From a virus, in UHGV virus genome UHGV-0039940: a DNA stretch of 17,129 nt; one strand, given 5' to 3'. Position 1 is the first letter of the stretch, and each line of letters begins with the position of its first letter. Of this stretch, positions 7,053 through 17,129 are shown one piece after another. The notes under the pieces are model-generated. The model did no database searches. It was not told where the DNA came from and saw only the letters and a list, made by a program, of their open reading frames with translations. A program made the translations under genes and the position numbers.

Positions 7053-7950
7053 TCTTGCAACCGTAACACATTTAAGGCCTTCACAACGGCCTGTGGAGCG
7101 TCGTGTGGCAGAAGTTGAAGATGGTTATACCCGTCTTGCAAATGCCCTGTATGAAGAGCTTATCGGCGCAGATTTAACGAAAAATCAGAGCAAGGTTGCC
7201 CACGCCATATGCCGTAAAACATACGGCTACGGTAAAAAGATGGATCGCATCTCTGATAGTCAGTTAGCTCAAATTACCAGGCTGCCAAGACAGAAGGTAA
7301 ACAAGGCCAAGAATGAGCTTATCGCGATGAAGGTTATCCTTCGCGAAGGCCAGCAAATCGGGCCTAACAAGAACATCGAGGAATGGCAAATCGAAGGGTG
7401 TCACTACTCTGGTGATAATGTCACTGCATTGGTGACAAAAAGTGTCACCAAAACGGTGACAGCGCTGTCACCAAAACAGGGACACACAAAAGAAACTATT
7501 ACAAAAGAAAAAAGAAAAGATTATTCGTCCGAGAATTCTGGCGAATCCTCTGACCAGCCAGAAAACGATCTTTCTGTGGTTAAACCGGATGCTGCAATTC
7601 AGAGCGGCAGCAAGTGGGGAACAGCAGAAGACCTGACCGCCGCAGAGTGGATGTTTGACATGGTGAAGACCATCGCACCATCAGCCAGAAAACCGAATTT
7701 TGCAGGGTGGGCTAACGATATCCGCCTGATGCGTGAACGTGACGGACGTAACCACCGCGATATGTGTGTGCTTTTCCGCTGGGCCTGCCAGGACAACTTC
7801 TGGTCCGGTAACGTGCTGAGTCCGGCCAAACTCCGCGACAAGTGGACCCAGCTCGAAATCAACCGTAACAAGCAACAGGCAGGCGTGACAGCCAGCAAAC
7901 CAAAACTCGACCTGACAAACACTGACTGGATTTACGGGGTGGATTTATGA
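7045..7950 (+). CDS. O: Replication initiator O (chimeric: heterologous N-terminal origin-binding domain, lambda-type C-terminal domain)
   Basis: 301-aa ORF; the C-terminal half (...[49 protein letters not shown]...DWIYGVDL) matches lambda O, the N-terminal half does not. Confidence 0.9.
7391..7525 (+). other. Replication origin inside O: GTGAC/GTCAC-type iterons followed by an AT-rich tract
   Basis: Repeated ggtgac/gtcacc units (ggtgacaaaaagtgtcacc, ggtgacagcgctgtcacc) then acacaaaagaaactattacaaaagaaaaaagaaaagattatt. Confidence 0.6.
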
Positions 7951-8540
7951 AAAACATCGCCGCACAGATGGTTAACTTTGACCGTGAGCAGATGCGTCGG
8001 ATCGCCAACAACATGCCGGAACAGTACGACGAAAAGCCGCAGGTACAACAGGTAGCGCAGATCATCAACGGTGTGTTCAGCCAGTTACTGGCAACTTTCC
8101 CGGCGAGTCTGGCTAACCGGGGCCAGAACGAACTGAATGAAATCCGCCGCCAGTGGGTTCTGGCTTTCCGGGAAAACGGGATCACCTCGATGGAACAGGT
8201 TAACGCAGGAATGCGCGTAGCCCGTCGGCAGAATCGACCATTTCTTCCATCACCCGGGCAGTTTGTTGCATGGTGCCGGGAAGAAGCATCCGTTATCGCC
8301 GGACTGCCAAACGTCAGCGAGCTGGTTGATATGGTTTACGAGTATTGCCGGAAGCGTGGCCTGTATCCGGATGCAGAGTCTTATCCGTGGAAATCAAACG
8401 CGCACTACTGGCTGGTTACCAACCTGTACCAGAACATGCGGGCCAATGCGCTGACTGACGCGGAATTACGGCGCAAGGCTGCCGATGAACTGACCTGTAA
8501 GCACGAATTAACCGTGGTGAGACGATACCTGAACCAGTAA
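7947..8540 (+). CDS. P: Replication protein P, truncated by a frameshift near 8493-8500 (C-terminal residues continue in another frame to 8644)
   Basis: [42 protein letters not shown]... matches lambda P up to ...RRKAADEL, then diverges to TCKHELTVVRRYLNQ-stop; the lambda-like ARINRGE.IPEPVKQLPVMGGRPLNRAQALAKIAEIKAKFGLKGASV is encoded in a different frame ending at 8642-8644. Confidence 0.8.
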   Translation: MKNIAAQMVNFDREQMRRIANNMPEQYDEKPQVQQVAQIINGVFSQLLATFPASLANRGQNELNEIRRQWVLAFRENGITSMEQVNAGMRVARRQNRPFLPSPGQFVAWCREEASVIAGLPNVSELVDMVYEYCRKRGLYPDAESYPWKSNAHYWLVTNLYQNMRANALTDAELRRKAADELTCKHELTVVRRYLNQ

Positions 8541-11620: not shown

Positions 11621-12343
11621 ATGAATGAGCTGATAAATAGCAACGTCATCAAAATGACAAGCATTGAAATCGCTGAGTTGGTGGGAAGCCAACACGGTAA
11701 TGTCAGAATATCAATAGAACGTCTGGCAAAGCGTGGGGTGATTCAACTTCCTCCAATGCAAAAAGTTGAAAATAAACAAACAATTAGCCCTAACAAATTC
11801 ACAAGCGTGTATATATTCGAAGGCGAACAAGGTAAGCGAGACAGCATTATTGTCGTCGCTCAGTTGTCGCCGGAATTCACCGCTCGTCTTGTTGACCGTT
11901 GGCGAGAACTCGAAGGGGCAACCGCGAAAATACCACAAACCTTTTCTGAGGCATTGCGCCTTGCGGCCGACCTTGAAGACCAGAAGGCTGAACTGGAGAA
12001 ACAGCTTGCTCTCGCAGCACCTAAAGTTGAGTTTGCCGATCGCGTTGGCGAGGCCAGCGGAATTTTGATTGGAAACTATGCAAAGGTTGTTGGAATTGGT
12101 CCAAACAAACTGTTTGCGTGGATGCGCGATCACAAAATCCTTATTACTTCAGGTGCCCGGCGCAATGTGCCAATGCAGGAATATATGGAGCGCGGCTATT
12201 TCACAGTGAAAGAAACAGCGGTCAACACAAATCACGGAATACAGATATCGTTCACCACAAAAATCACCGGGCGTGGTCAACAGTGGCTGACCAGAAAGCT
12301 GCTCGATAACGGAATGCTGAAAGTAACAGGGGAGGCTGCTTAA
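11621..12343 (+). CDS. roi: Rha/KilA-C family regulatory protein (Roi-like, antirepressor family)
   Basis: [48 protein letters not shown]... (ATG at 11621, 7 nt after GAGAGGA; alternative ATG at 11615); N-terminal Rha-like and C-terminal KilA-C-like segments as I recall HK022 Roi-type proteins. Confidence 0.65.
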
Positions 12344-12948
12344 TGGCTAAACCAGCGCGAAGGAAATGCAAAATATGCAAAGAATGGTTTCACCCGGCAT
12401 TCTCAAATCAGTGGTGGTGCTGCCCGGAACACGGAACTCAATTAGCACTCGAACGACGAAGTAAAGAACGCGAAAAAGCGGAAAAAGCAGCAGAGAAGAA
12501 ACGACGACGAGAGGAGCAGAAACAGAAAGATAAACTGAAGATTCGAAAACTCGCCTTAAAGCCCCGCAGTTACTGGATTAAACAAGCCCAACAAGCCGTA
12601 AACGCCTTCATCAGAGAAAGAGACCGCGACTTACCATGTATCTCGTGCGGAACGCTCACGTCTGCTCAGTGGGATGCCGGACATTACCGGACAACTGCTG
12701 CGGCACCTCAACTCCGATTTGATGAACGCAATATTCACAAGCAATGCGTGGTGTGCAACCAGCACAAAAGCGGAAATCTCGTTCCGTATCGCGTCGAACT
12801 GATTAGCCGCATCGGGCAGGAAGCAGTAGATGAAATCGAATCAAACCATAACCGCCATCGCTGGACTGTCGAAGAGTGCAGGGCCATCAAGGCAGAGTAC
12901 CAACAGAAACTCAAAGACCTGCGAAACAGCAGAAGTGAGGCCGCATGA
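12343..12948 (+). CDS. ninG: NinG (Rap recombination endonuclease)
   Basis: 201-aa [69 protein letters not shown]... matches lambda NinG closely. Confidence 0.9.
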
Positions 12949-12991: not shown

Positions 12992-13510
12992 ATGGGCATA
13001 AGAGAACTAAACCTCACCAAAGAACAGCACGATTGGCTGAATGGCTGGCTTGAACTGTGGGGCGCATGGGTTTATTCAGGTCGTCTGGAAAAGCGCATGA
13101 GCAGCGTAATAGCGAAGTTCATGGAGAGCGTAGAGCCGGGAAGAGTTATGACAAGACCAATGTGTAATGATGATGATGGAATGTTGATTTCTCAGGTCGT
13201 CGATTCCGTCATGTACATTGACAAGAAAGCCTTTGGCATCCTCCTCAGCTACTACGCTCATGGTTCATCTAAGAGAGCAATTGCATCCTACTATCACGCG
13301 ACTGCAAAGCCACGCAAGATGTGTGGACGCGGTGGCGAGGGATGGAGAAAACCTTCACTGGCAACCTGTAGAAACGAAATTGACGATATCCTGAAAGCGT
13401 CATTATTTGTTTTGTACCAACCAATGCAAAATGCTTTCAAAATGCGTAAACGTGTTGAGAAAGTTAAGCATGTTGCTGTTAAAAGCCTTGACATGCAATT
13501 AGCCATTTAG
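12992..13510 (+). CDS. Late-gene antiterminator Q (Q82/QuuD-like family, not lambda Q type)
   Basis: 172-aa ORF after AAGGGAGA; LELWGAWVYSG...RPMCNDDDGMLISQVVD...LLSYYAHGSS echoes the WGAW...RPQCCDDDAMII...LLVDYYV pattern of QuuD-type antiterminators as I recall them; position after ninG fits Q. Confidence 0.7.
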   Translation: MGIRELNLTKEQHDWLNGWLELWGAWVYSGRLEKRMSSVIAKFMESVEPGRVMTRPMCNDDDGMLISQVVDSVMYIDKKAFGILLSYYAHGSSKRAIASYYHATAKPRKMCGRGGEGWRKPSLATCRNEIDDILKASLFVLYQPMQNAFKMRKRVEKVKHVAVKSLDMQLAI

Positions 13511-13599
13511 CCATAATTAGAGGGTAAGCTGCCGTTAGTGACTCTTAAGTTGCAACGGTGGCTTTTTTTATTTGGGTCAGTCGTATAAAGGTCATTACG

Positions 13600-13648
13600 G
13601 AAGGCTGTTAACCTTCTTATCGTGGTTCGATTCCCGCTACCCGCTCCA
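13600..13648 (+). other. tRNA-like fragment (3' two-thirds of a decayed tRNA: anticodon arm with GUU, T-loop, CCA)
   Basis: Anticodon stem-loop gaagg-CTGTTAA-ccttc (13600-13616), T-loop G-TTCGATT-C (13625-13633), CCA at 13646-13648; T-stem and acceptor stem do not close and no 5' half pairs. Confidence 0.3.
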
Positions 13649-13816
13649 GATTTATTATCAGGCTCGCTTCGGCGGGCTTTTTTTGTATCTGCGCCACGCC
13701 CGGCGCATATCAACCACAGAGCCTTTCGGGGGTGAGCTTACGGAGTGGTCAGTGTGACTTTCTCTGTGGGCAGATCGCTCCCGGGCGTTGGCTCACCCAC
13801 CCAAAGGAACGTCACG

Positions 13817-14248
13817 ATGTTTGGTATTTTTGGTAAAAAAGCCCGCCGAGCGGCAGTGGAAATTAAAAAGTTTGAGAAACGTGATCTGGCACAGGCGGTT
13901 ATTAATGCTGCCTATCTGGTGGCCTATGCAGATGGTGAATGTGAGGCTTCAGAGAAAGCGAAGATCGAGCAGGTCTTGCGTAACCAGCCTGCGTTGTCCG
14001 CGTTTACGTCAGAAATTAATGCGATTAGCGCAACCATTATCGGTCAGCTGGATACGAACTTTAAAATTGGTCGTCGAGCGGCGTTACGTGAGATCGAGGA
14101 TGTGAAACACGATACGCGTGAAGCGGAAGACGTGCTGGATGTGGCGGTGGCCATTGCCGAAGCAGACGGCGAAATAGAGCCGGAAGAGCGCAAGGTGCTG
14201 GAAGAGATTGCCGGTGTCCTGGGCCTTCGTCTGGAGAATCATCTGTGA
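13817..14248 (+). CDS. TerB-like (tellurite-resistance TerB family-like) protein, 143 aa
   Basis: ATG at 13817 after AAGGAA; MFGIFGKKARRAAVEIKKFEKRDLAQAVINAAYLVAYADGECEASEKAKIEQVL...VAVAIAEADGEIEPEERKVLEEIAGVLGL shows two helix-ADGE-helix repeats typical of TerB-like domains as I recall them. Confidence 0.55.
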   Translation: MFGIFGKKARRAAVEIKKFEKRDLAQAVINAAYLVAYADGECEASEKAKIEQVLRNQPALSAFTSEINAISATIIGQLDTNFKIGRRAALREIEDVKHDTREAEDVLDVAVAIAEADGEIEPEERKVLEEIAGVLGLRLENHL

Positions 14249-14256
14249 CGGTAAAA

Positions 14257-14409
14257 ATGCGTCTGGCTGTGGTTGCGCTCCTGCTGTTTCTGGTGGTGAT
14301 GGTGGACTTCAGCAGCCGGATAATGTCAGTGCTGGCTGACGGTGTGCTGGTGGCGGGTGTGGTGGTTGTTGCTTTCCCGTTGCTGAAAAAGAAAGCATCA
14401 GGCGATTAG
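14257..14409 (+). CDS. Small membrane protein (50 aa, two hydrophobic segments) coupled to the TerB-like gene
   Basis: MRLAVVALLLFLVVMVDFSSRIMSVLADGVLVAGVVVVAFPLLKKKASGD; an in-frame GTG at 14245 overlapping the TerB-like stop is an alternative start with GGAG 8 nt upstream. Confidence 0.35.
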   Translation: MRLAVVALLLFLVVMVDFSSRIMSVLADGVLVAGVVVVAFPLLKKKASGD

Positions 14410-14648
14410 CAGGGTATCAGTTACCCGTTGAAATTTTTAAATACCTCACAATTCAGGCGGTTGACTGTTGTCTGGTTTGCGGGGAGTTTGTTAAAAGAAA
14501 CTGGCATGGTGAATCCCCCTGTGCGGAGGGGCAATCAGCAACTGGTGTTTTGTCACCGACCCTTATCCTTTCTGTGCGGGTTCAGGTGCTGATACTGAAC
14601 TCACCGGGAGGCACCCGGCACCATGCAATGGCACATAGCGCCACTCTC

Positions 14649-14684
14649 CAGCCCCTCTCCGGAGGGGCTGTTTATATTGATTTT
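14649..14684 (+). terminator. Strong rho-independent terminator
   Basis: CAGCCCCTC-tccg-GAGGGGCTG followed by TTTATATTGATTTT. Confidence 0.6.
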
Positions 14685-14704
14685 GTCAGATGTGAGTAAA
14701 CTCC

Positions 14705-15040
14705 TTATGGACTTTGTTGTTTTAGTCCATAAGGACATATTTGCAGAGTGCAACGGTTATTAAAGCATTCATTCAATACGTTATCTGTATTTGTAGGGCA
14801 TTCCTGGCTGTTTTTGATTAAATTCCAGAATTTTTTATTGAATGGTACTACGTTGTAAATGGTTACAGGTAGCACTTTGTTATTGAGCATGATACCTGTG
14901 TGAGTCAGTGTAAATATACTTTCAGGAGGTAAGAAAGCATCCGATTGATACCAGATTATTAATTTTATTTTACTCCATATGACTGAAAAAGATATTCCGC
15001 ATGATGGCTGGATAACTGTATCAATCACAATCCACTTCAT
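14705..15040 (-). CDS. Hypothetical Cys-rich protein (111 aa) in an AT-rich island, convergent with the late operon
   Basis: ORF with AAGGAAA about 5 nt upstream of the ATG at 15040; strongly AT-rich; no family recognised. Confidence 0.3.
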
Positions 15041-15300
15041 TTAGTTTCCTTGTTTATGTCTTGCTGGTGATGTTCTGAAAAGTATAAATGATATTTTTGA
15101 ATGTAAACCATAGAGCAGAATTATTTTTCTGATGTTGTTTATTGTTTATTTAAATGCAGGGTGGTTTATATCTCGTCTTGTAGTTTACCCATGCATATCT
15201 GCTTGATGATGAGGTTTTTATTTAAGGTATGGTTTTGTGTTTTTTCTGTATTACATGTCAGGTATTTTAAAGAATTATTTTTCAGATGGTGGAAAGAACC

Positions 15301-17129
15301 ATGGCATTTAAACACTATGATGTTGTCAGGGCGGCATCGCCGTCAGACCTTGCGGAGCGACTGACACAAAAACTGAAGGAGGGGTGGCAGCCATTTGGCA
15401 GCCCTGTCGCCATCACGCCTTATACCCTGATGCAGGCCATTGCGGCGGAAGGTGATGTCACCACACCTGTGGTGGTGAAGCCGTCGGATGGAGAAGGCAC
15501 AGTTATCAGCACCACCAGCGAACCGGAGTATTACTTTGTTGTTGTTCTGGCGGGGCAGTCAAACTCAATGTCTTTTGGTGAAGGGCTGCCGCTGCCGGAG
15601 ACATATGACCGTCCGGACCCGCGTATTAAACAGCTGGCGCGTCGCAGTACGGTGACGCCGGGTGGTGCCGCCTGTAAATATAACGACATCATTCCGGCAG
15701 ACCACTGTCTGCATGATGTGCAGGATATGAGTAACCTGAATCATCCTGAAGCGGACCTTAATAAAGGGCAGTACGGTTGTGTGGGGCATGCTCTGCATGT
15801 TGCCAAAAAGCTGCTGCCGTTTATGCCTGCGAATGCGGGTATCCTTCTTGTTCCATGTGGCCGTGGCGATTCGGGATTTACTGCGGGGGCCGAGGGGGCG
15901 TTTAACGAAGCGTCGGGAGCGACCGCAGGCTCGTCCCTGTGGGGGGCGGATAAACCGCTGTATTATGACCTGGTCAGCAGAACCCGTGCGGCCCTGAAGA
16001 AAAATCCGAAGAACGTGCTGTTATCAGTGATCTGGATGCAGGGAGAAAAAGATGTCAGTTCGGGGAGACATGCAGAACACAATGCGCTTTTCCTTGCCAT
16101 GGTAAATCAGTTCCGTACGGAACTGGCAGATGTGGCAGAGCAGTGTACTGGCGGGACAACGGCCAGCGTCCCGTGGATTTGCGGTGATACCACGTACTAC
16201 TGGAAGGAAAGGTATGCAGCGCCGTATGAGGCGGTTTACGGTGGGTATAAAGGCAAAGCTGCGCAGAATATTCACTTTGTGCCGTTGATGACGGATGAGC
16301 ATGGTGTGAATGTGCCGACAAACGAGCCGTCAGAAGATCCGGACATTATCCCGGCGGGATACTATGGCGCTGCGTCACGCACTGCCAGTAACTGGACGTC
16401 AGCCGATCGTAAAACGCACTTCAGTTCATGGGCGCGAAGAGGCCTTGTTTCAGACCGCCTGGCAGGTGCCATTTTGCAGTACGCCGGGCGGACATTATCG
16501 TTCCTTACCGGGCAGAGCGCACCGCAGTCGGGTGGTACAACTCCCGGTGATGATGTCAGTCCGGGGGTACCGGGTGTTGAGAAACCGCAGGATGGCGGTG
16601 TTGCTGGTACTGGTCATGATGAGGCCGTGAGCAGTACCAGGACGGTGGCTGAATATGATGCGAACAGTGGAAATGGTGTATGGACAGAGCAGCAGTGGGG
16701 GGCTGCCGGTGGCAAAGGCACTGTGACTGATGACGGTGGACGGAAAGCGCTGCGACTGGAAAAACAGCCCGGTAAACTGACGTCCTGGAAAATGTTCTGT
16801 ACTGTTGCAGTGGAGGAGGCAAAAAATCTTCTCAGCAAGGGGGGTGAAATTGCCGTACGGTTCAAAATTCCGGACGGAAGCGAACTGGTGAACGGACAGT
16901 TTGTCTTTGGTCTCTACTGGCCGGTGTCGCAGTGGGCGTCAGGCGCGGCAGCAAACAGTATGCTGGCATCATTCTTCCTTCAGACGGATGCATCAAATCT
17001 GAATCTTATGCACCACAAGGGCACGTCGAATGCACAACTGGGTACATTTGGTGCGTTTGACCATAACTGGCATACGGTTGTTTTCCGCTTTGCGGGAAAT
17101 AACAGCGAAAGAGTCGTTCCGGTGATTGA
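15301..17129 (+). CDS. Prophage sialate O-acetylesterase-like protein (NanS-p-like, SGNH/SASA domain), 3'-partial
   Basis: Open frame from ATG 15301 to the window end (over 600 codons, no stop) containing VVVLAGQSNSMSFGEG (GQSN block of SGNH/sialate O-acetylesterase domains). Absent from the ORF track because it has no stop in the window. Confidence 0.7.
   Translation, partial: MAFKHYDVVRAASPSDLAERLTQKLKEGWQPFGSPVAITPYTLMQAIAAEGDVTTPVVVKPSDGEGTVISTTSEPEYYFVVVLAGQSNSMSFGEGLPLPETYDRPDPRIKQLARRSTVTPGGAACKYNDIIPADHCLHDVQDMSNLNHPEADLNKGQYGCVGHALHVAKKLLPFMPANAGILLVPCGRGDSGFTAGAEGAFNEASGATAGSSLWGADKPLYYDLVSRTRAALKKNPKNVLLSVIWMQGEKDVSSGRHAEHNALFLAMVNQFRTELADVAEQCTGGTTASVPWICGDTTYYWKERYAAPYEAVYGGYKGKAAQNIHFVPLMTDEHGVNVPTNEPSEDPDIIPAGYYGAASRTASNWTSADRKTHFSSWARRGLVSDRLAGAILQYAGRTLSFLTGQSAPQSGGTTPGDDVSPGVPGVEKPQDGGVAGTGHDEAVSSTRTVAEYDANSGNGVWTEQQWGAAGGKGTVTDDGGRKALRLEKQPGKLTSWKMFCTVAVEEAKNLLSKGGEIAVRFKIPDGSELVNGQFVFGLYWPVSQWASGAAANSMLASFFLQTDASNLNLMHHKGTSNAQLGTFGAFDHNWHTVVFRFAGNNSERVVPVI

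Follow-up and report, generated by a model that had tools for sequence, protein, structure and literature searches.

At positions 13817-14409 of the viral genome sequence UHGV-0039940 (17,129 nucleotides (nt), hereafter the window), which comprises the early-right region and the start of the late region of a lambdoid E. coli prophage, lie tciA and tciB, two genes located downstream of a Q-type late antiterminator gene. The first, tciA (13817-14248, + strand), runs from ATG to TGA and encodes a TerB-domain protein of 143 amino acids (aa), with a Shine-Dalgarno sequence (AAGGAA) 7 nt before the ATG; its open reading frame (ORF) already opens at a GTG at 13745, but the supported start is the ATG at 13817. 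The second, tciB (14245-14409, + strand), runs from GTG to TAG, with a GGAG sequence 8 nt before the GTG, and its coding sequence (CDS) of 165 nt specifies a DUF3927 protein of 54 aa. The tciA stop codon and the tciB start codon share a 4-nt overlap (GTGA). Both genes are real, well beyond chance, and the locus is almost certainly, from sequence comparison, a lambdoid-phage copy of the tciA-tciB module of phage P1, to which TciA is 53% and TciB 44% identical in full-length alignments.

The tciAB gene pair and its products

The assignment of TciA to the TerB family was confirmed by domain searches, with the Pfam TerB model (PF05099) matching over profile positions 2-109 of 118 (E=3.9e-16, 59.8 bits, gathering score 24.4), phrog_632 matching at E=3e-69, and residues 15-137 aligning with the Klebsiella pneumoniae TerB of known structure (PDB 2JXU, E=6e-8). 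With 143 aa, TciA is close to the length of canonical TerB (153 aa in the PDB chain). An AlphaFold2 model of TciA was all-helical (predicted local distance difference test score 86.7), with an N-terminus of lower confidence; a Foldseek search of the PDB gave the TerB-like structures 2h5n and 2ou3 as best matches at weak E-values (0.012 to 1.1), so that membership of the fold rests mainly on sequence. The acidic motif A-x-ADG-x5-E occurs twice in TciA, as AYADGECEASE (residues 36-46) and AEADGEIEPEE (residues 114-124), and among 14 distant phage homologues G118 and E124 are invariant, with D39, G40 and D117 kept in most. A conserved hydrophobic-then-basic motif, MFGxFxKK (MFGIFGKK in the window), precedes the TerB domain at the N-terminus. 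Other TerB-related models gave lower scores: the NCBIfam DjlA model matched partially and far under its family cutoff (E=8e-7), and DUF533 (YebE) matched below its gathering score (E=4e-5).

TciB belongs to Pfam DUF3927 (PF13064, E=4.8e-20, 71.7 bits, cutoff 25) and matches phrog_1470, which is labelled 'TciB-like'. The two hydrophobic segments described in the initial annotation are borne out by the hydropathy profile, with stretches at approximately residues 7-20 and 26-47 and lysine or arginine residues flanking both ends, which suggests a two-helix hairpin in the inner membrane with both termini in the cytoplasm. The length of 50 aa given for this protein in the initial annotation did not hold, as the count had begun at an internal ATG (14257) instead of the GTG at 14245. 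TciB of P1 aligns without gaps to that of the window from residue 1 and has an alanine at position 5, where the window has the internal methionine, and the 54-aa form is therefore the correct one; the NCBI Prokaryotic Genome Annotation Pipeline (PGAP) also uses the 165-nt CDS.

The initial annotation had further implied that the pair was new. Its observation and its positional reading were correct, and the element is a named, annotated and very common phage module: the proteins are called TciA and TciB in P1, they have Pfam and PHROG families, and lambdoid phage JLK-2012 (JQ347801) has tciA and tciB annotated at exactly the same position after Q and tRNA genes, with protein identities of 99% for TciA and 100% for TciB. 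PGAP labels the two products 'tellurite resistance TerB family protein' and 'DUF3927 family protein' in hundreds of genomes, and sequences identical to the pair at the protein level are present in many genomes. A megablast search with the two genes alone, in which a copy was counted as complete when one place spanned 80% or more of the query, found the complete pair in 803 of the 5426 complete E. coli genomes (~15%); a single genome had up to 8 matching places. The best match covered <80% of the pair in ~1560 further E. coli genomes; in the two of these that were checked, CFT073 and KOL-1, tciA is gone and part of tciB is left, and the other partial-match genomes may share this remnant state. 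The ORFs labelled 'DUF3927 family protein' in CFT073 (record L096, 2969-3100) and KOL-1 (record L097, 3004-3120) are truncated tciB remnants, corresponding to residues 23-51 in CFT073.

Conservation of the pair

Homologues of TciA were found in 131 of 50,697 phage records, from phages of varied hosts and lifestyles. Among the 14 distant phages sampled, 12 have a TerB gene directly followed by a gene for a small membrane protein, virulent phages among them, and we consequently regard a TerB protein with a tiny membrane protein as a conserved unit. The TciB homologue starts between 7 nt before and 5 nt after the TerB stop in ten of the 14, and phages with such a TerB-TciB junction include lambdoid phages, P1, an Erwinia jumbo phage, N4-like phages, siphophages, and phages of Actinobacillus, Pantoea and Pseudomonas. 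The TciB sequences share the consensus hydrophobic run-(I/V)DF(T/S)-x3-(M/I)S-x-LADG-x-LV-x7-WP(L/I)(I/L)K, with FP instead of WP in the window. A different small membrane protein, the single-pass phrog_27356, takes the place of TciB in two of the 14 phages. These are Pseudomonas phages AF (record L085, 1932-2153) and Zuri (record L092, 1943-2146), where a 67-73-aa protein with the motif YGxQTERETxYAxFVGCMV is encoded by a gene that begins either 3 nt ahead of the TerB gene end or 5 nt beyond it; the product names in the Zuri record look offset by one gene. Natural fusions of TerB and DUF3927 were sought as a sign that the two proteins associate physically, but three apparent cases (P0127, P0185 and P0258) were rejected, as they look like frameshift or gene-call artefacts.

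Closer relatives of the locus were taken from IMG/VR, where the scan gave 80 loci, all at 97-100% identity, which were suited to counts and to the ratio of non-synonymous to synonymous substitution rates (dN/dS), but not to deep comparison. The overlap of start and stop codons, which bears on the translational coupling stated in the initial annotation, is kept at -3 in 78 of the 80. The dN/dS of tciA is 0.02-0.05, at synonymous divergence (dS) up to 0.76, and that of tciB is 0.22-0.36, with dS reaching 0.77 when both genes are taken together; tciA is under very strong purifying selection and near frozen in sequence. Most hits of TciA and TciB in large databases were near-identical sequences from E. 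coli, which hardly widened the diversity. The TciB family is small: of 1.84 billion proteins, it accounts for 53 representative clusters.

The Q-to-tciA interval and the Shiga toxin cargo slot

The gene for the 172-aa antiterminator (12992-13510, + strand) follows a NinG gene (12343-12948), and its product is a member of the Pfam family Phage_antitermQ (PF06530, E=1.3e-25), as the initial annotation had supposed, and is labelled 'antiterminator Q family protein' by PGAP in a 99.9% identical record. The initial annotation had placed tciA immediately downstream of Q; the gene does lie downstream, but it starts 306 nt past the Q stop codon, and the interval between them (13511-13816) is structured. 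A promoter resembling the lambda late promoter pR' overlaps the end of Q (13488-13517, + strand; TTGACA, 18-nt spacer, CATAAT), and was the sole site matching the consensus at 11 of 12 positions within 13300-15300 in a consensus scan; its position would correspond to that of pR' in lambda. It is followed by a tR'-like intrinsic terminator (13526-13570, + strand), a long hairpin with a run of seven U residues, and the segment 13518-13575 folds at -21.1 kcal/mol (z=-3.5). Promoter and first terminator together have what appears to be the layout of lambda pR'/tR', and the terminator would stop a short pR' transcript unless Q acts. In a lysogen, pR' and this first terminator (13518-13570) would yield a transcript of ~45 nt, which we take to be a positional analogue of the lambda 6S RNA or the small RNA (sRNA) StxS of Shiga toxin (Stx) phages. 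The sequence of the tR'-like terminator is the same in JLK-2012, though the Q and promoter region differs.

Behind this terminator lies a decayed chimeric tRNA relic (about 13574-13649, + strand), consisting of the 5' two-thirds of a tRNA-Asn(GTT) and the 3' end of a tRNA-Gly. JLK-2012 carries an array of tRNA-Asn, tRNA-Thr and tRNA-Gly at this place, and since its alignment with the window shows a deletion from the Asn T-arm to the Gly T-arm over the shared T-loop sequence GGTTCGA, with loss of tRNA-Thr, we interpret the remaining sequence as a chimera. A functional tRNA at 13574-13643 was rejected, as ARAGORN called no tRNA in the window, the Rfam tRNA match was marginal and contained mispairs (32.6 bits, gathering score 29), and the alignment gives a chimeric relic. 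The relic shows that tRNA genes have served as recombination points in this slot. The TerB-TciB pair is also located inside or beside tRNA clusters in unrelated phages, namely Erwinia phage ChrisDB (record L084), P1 (record L003), Pseudomonas phage ZY21 (record L095) and JLK-2012 (record L002).

A second intrinsic terminator follows at 13660-13686 (+ strand), with a GC-rich 8-bp stem and a T7 run, after which a leader of ~130 nt precedes tciA. The segment 13651-13816, comprising the second terminator and the leader, matches in 79 of the 80 IMG/VR loci, and the leader is also matched in relatives whose Q and tRNA region further upstream is different. The leader contains a long, stable hairpin (13719-13794, + strand), recognised by its fold z-score: the region 13650-13835 folds with z=-3.26, and none of 200 shuffled sequences folded as well. 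This hairpin had no match in Rfam. No sigma70-like promoter was detected on the + strand between 13518 and 13817 in a simple consensus scan.

Directly after tciB lies an STnc100-family sRNA gene (14475-14679, + strand; Rfam RF02076, full length, 137.6 bits, gathering score 47) with its own terminator at 14649-14670, which is present in most close relatives and marks the downstream boundary of the tciAB cargo. It is followed by an intact, AT-rich gene for an IraM-like anti-adaptor of 111 aa (14705-15040, - strand; NCBIfam NF007393, 162 bits, cutoff 121), which is convergent with the late operon and is located within a 626-bp segment (14674-15299) that is absent from the closest relative. The 5' part of a nanS-p gene for a sialate esterase of the SASA family (15301-17129, + strand) occupies the remainder as an open frame of 609 codons up to the window end, and aligns to the 'SASA family carbohydrate esterase' of record L001.

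The order in the window is thus Q, tRNA relic, tciA, tciB, STnc100, iraM-like (on the - strand) and nanS-p, and the proposal of the initial annotation that the pair sits in the cargo slot of Stx phages was supported both by gene order and by DNA homology. In an Stx2a phage, Q is followed, further on, by tRNA-Met/Arg/Arg, stx2A, stx2B, iraM (on the - strand), yjhS/nanS-p, holin and endolysin genes, so that the iraM gene of the window is also the gene following stx2B there, and the match to Stx2 phages at the DNA level begins at ~14446, just past tciB and upstream of STnc100. On an O157:H7 chromosome the order is Q, tRNA-Ile/Arg/Arg, TerB, DUF3927, SASA esterase and holin. Upstream tRNA genes are present in 70 of the 80 close relatives, 62 of which have Met(cat) and/or Arg tRNAs, the set located upstream of stx2 in the Stx2a phage. 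As the flanks match those of Stx2 phages, we consider tciAB and stx2AB to be alternative cargoes of one slot. Outside this region, the replication gene P (7947-8540) has a 4-bp deletion at 8499/8500 compared with the closest relative, which shifts the frame and gives a product of 197 aa instead of 233, and the prophage may therefore be replication-defective.

Possible roles of TciA and TciB and comparison with known systems

The best explanation overall, to which we give about even credence, is that tciAB encodes a Q-dependent, membrane-tethered TerB module acting in lytic growth. In this model, a late transcript initiated at pR', immediately beyond Q, would carry tciA and tciB, whose translation would be coupled, and the two proteins would be made only when Q antiterminates during lytic growth, along with nanS-p and the lysis genes. 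Late expression by Q-dependent read-through of the terminators, as proposed in the initial annotation, is the simplest reading of the sequence and a highly probable one, since two terminators precede tciA and a separate promoter is not detectable; the flanks and upstream tRNA genes shared with the Stx2a phage also speak for it. TciA would be a cytoplasmic single-domain TerB protein, and TciB may hold or partner it on the cytoplasmic side of the inner membrane. Such a membrane complex of TciA and TciB is somewhat favoured by analogy with two arrangements that anchoring by TciB would mirror, the TerB-TerC pair of ter operons, described as a core membrane complex (PMC12054061), and DjlA, where a membrane helix is followed by a TerB-like domain. 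TerB has been described as membrane-associated, and TerB domains are also part of three defence systems, Bunzi, Shango and Dionysus, with a supposed role in surveying the membrane. The tethered domain would then sense or stabilise the membrane state of the infected cell, and might keep pore-forming colicins, superinfecting phages or membrane-acting abortive-infection effectors from making the membrane fail too early in a productive infection, whereas tellurite resistance would not be conferred. This protective or exclusion role is the weakest step and is offered tentatively, as it extrapolates from the phenotypes of ter operons, a connection having been made between the ter cluster and both phage propagation and the resistance of cells to channel-forming colicins (PMC4319500).

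Several points weigh against this explanation. The phenotypes from which the protective role is extrapolated belong to whole ter operons, in which TerB was never shown to suffice, and in P1 a genome-wide CRISPR interference screen classified tciA, tciB and tciC as non-essential and dispensable for plaque formation (PMC10695390). No functional study of TciA or TciB was found in the literature searched. In Vibrio phage K479 and Sinorhizobium phage phiM5, two of the 14 distant phages, no small membrane ORF was detected beside the TerB gene, and no genuine natural fusion of TerB and DUF3927 was found. Finally, the promoter search was a crude consensus scan, which a weak or non-sigma70 promoter active in the lysogen could escape.

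As one rival, tciAB would be a lysogenic-conversion gene, switched on in the lysogen and giving the host resistance to tellurite, metals or oxidative stress. The TerB domain and the PGAP product name point in this direction, as do the PHROG category ('moron, auxiliary metabolic gene and host takeover') and the abundance of the pair in pathogenic E. coli, with as many as 8 matching places in a genome. Tellurite resistance maps to terCDE and not to terZAB in Yersinia pestis (PMC4633105), however, and TerC-TerD has been reported as the minimal unit (PMC12054061), while homologues of TerC, TerD, TerE, TerZ and TerA were not found in the seven neighbouring ORFs scanned (the neighbours including NinG, Q, DUF3927, IraM-like and SASA esterase genes) nor among the genes that PGAP annotates at the near-identical locus. 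TciA homologues are also present in strictly lytic phages, including virulent N4-like and jumbo phages, tciA is wholly lost in the reduced prophages of CFT073 and KOL-1, and the two terminators stand ahead of tciA with no promoter-like site in the consensus scan. A lytic-phase role fits these last three observations better, and we consider lysogenic conversion very improbable. Even less credible, to the point of being nearly negligible, is a functionless passenger that hitch-hikes with the tRNA array by recombination: tRNA genes do adjoin the pair in lambdoid phages, P1, the Erwinia jumbo phage and Pseudomonas phage ZY21, and the window itself has the recombination across tRNA T-loops, but the strength of purifying selection on tciA and the retention of the pair and its motifs across distant phage lineages are difficult to reconcile with neutrality. 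Both tellurite resistance and neutral hitch-hiking are thus unlikely explanations.

Three other roles were considered. The pair may inhibit host growth or division (the 'i' in Tci), with an arrest of division or a remodelling of the envelope that favours phage production, since E. coli cells become filamentous when they express terZAB from Y. pestis or the terZABC portion of R478 (PMC4633105), and the P1 literature groups tciA, tciB and tciC with division-control genes. Lethality was mapped to terZA, though, and filamentation was never pinned on TerB alone (PMC4633105); a late arrest, minutes ahead of lysis, would be of little benefit, and no likeness to known division inhibitors was seen in Pfam or PHROG, which makes this role improbable. 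We regard as equally improbable an accessory function in lysis timing, where TciB, with its two membrane helices and charged C-terminus, would modulate holin triggering together with TciA. In three phage types that are unrelated to each other, the pair precedes the genes for holin and endolysin (directly in Actinobacillus phage pPE4, two small ORFs apart in Escherichia phage CharmingMan, and farther away in the lambdoid late operon), but it is not beside lysis genes in P1 or in the N4-like, jumbo and Pantoea phages, its position in lambdoid phages is a general cargo slot, and even at E<=10 TciB had no match among the holin and antiholin families, with DUF3927 as its only family and phrog_1470 as its only PHROG. 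A TerB look-alike could also serve as a counter-defence decoy that competes with host TerB for TerC, or that jams the Ter 'Phi' phage inhibition, Shango, Bunzi or Dionysus. The near-canonical size of TciA and its alignment with TerB over residues 15-137 would suit a decoy, as would the presence of TerB domains in validated defence systems and the wide occurrence of homologues in virulent phages of many hosts. The idea is nevertheless purely speculative and slightly less probable than the preceding two: a decoy has no obvious need for a conserved membrane partner of its own, and PADLOC returned for TciA a marginal match to PDC-S48 (E=0.0032 over 35 residues) and none for TciB. Defence partner genes, such as those for a helicase/ATPase or a pore-forming toxin, were not found near the pair. 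A broader formulation, in which TciA-TciB is a dedicated inner-membrane phage weapon, produced in lytic growth, that either neutralises TerB-based immunity (Ter, Shango, Bunzi, Dionysus) or shields the cell from colicins, abortive infection and superinfection, would explain the spread over temperate and virulent phages and the extreme sequence conservation, but this too we judge unlikely, if a little less so than the three roles just described.

The genes were already named and annotated, and as a discovery they are not new; what is added here is the unit of TerB and a small membrane protein in distant phages, the selection on tciA, and the absence of nearby Ter and defence partners in the ORFs scanned. 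The pair is among the commonest cargoes of the Q-controlled Stx slot, which has the greatest medical importance among the phage slots of E. coli, and its role, once known, would clarify what lambdoid prophages carrying no toxin gain from this slot. Such knowledge would also make the TerB domain, which is little understood and recurs in several anti-phage defence systems, accessible through a simple set of two proteins.

Compared with TerB of the terZABCDE operons (R478, the O157 ter island and K. pneumoniae 2JXU), TciA has the same domain, a similar size, the ADG...E motifs and a membrane protein as candidate partner, but this partner is a predicted 54-aa hairpin and not the multi-pass TerC, and TerB alone is not expected to give tellurite resistance. 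The tci genes themselves owe their names to homology with the TerB protein encoded in the ter cluster of R478 (PMC4319500). The likeness to DjlA lies in a TerB-type domain kept at the inner membrane, with the difference that the putative anchor in the window is a separate polypeptide, that there is no J-domain, and that the DjlA and DUF533 matches stay below their cutoffs.

The stx2AB cargo of Stx2 phages shares with tciAB the slot after Q and a tRNA-Met(Ile)/Arg/Arg array and before iraM, nanS-p and holin, as well as the DNA homology that resumes just 3' of the cargo. Expression of stx2 is Q-dependent, and the same dependence is predicted for tciAB. The proteins are unrelated, however, and the tciAB products have neither a signal peptide nor a toxin domain. 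The Tci genes of P1 have the same order and the same tight junction of stop and start codons, and are preceded by tRNA-Asn and tRNA-Thr genes, as in JLK-2012. P1 differs in having a third gene, tciC (35 aa, single helix), after tciB, whereas no tciC-like ORF was found after tciB in the window, where the STnc100 sRNA is located instead, and tciC is likewise not annotated in JLK-2012; furthermore, the P1 genes lie in the dmt-ban region and those of the window in the putatively Q-dependent late operon of a lambdoid prophage. The closest counterparts are JLK-2012 and the TerB/DUF3927 pairs labelled by PGAP in O157:H7, O55:H7 and other prophages, all located after Q and tRNA genes and before nanS-p and the lysis genes. 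The terminators and leader of JLK-2012 are the same as those of the window, which differs from this type by the loss of most of the tRNA array and by the gain of the iraM-like insertion downstream.

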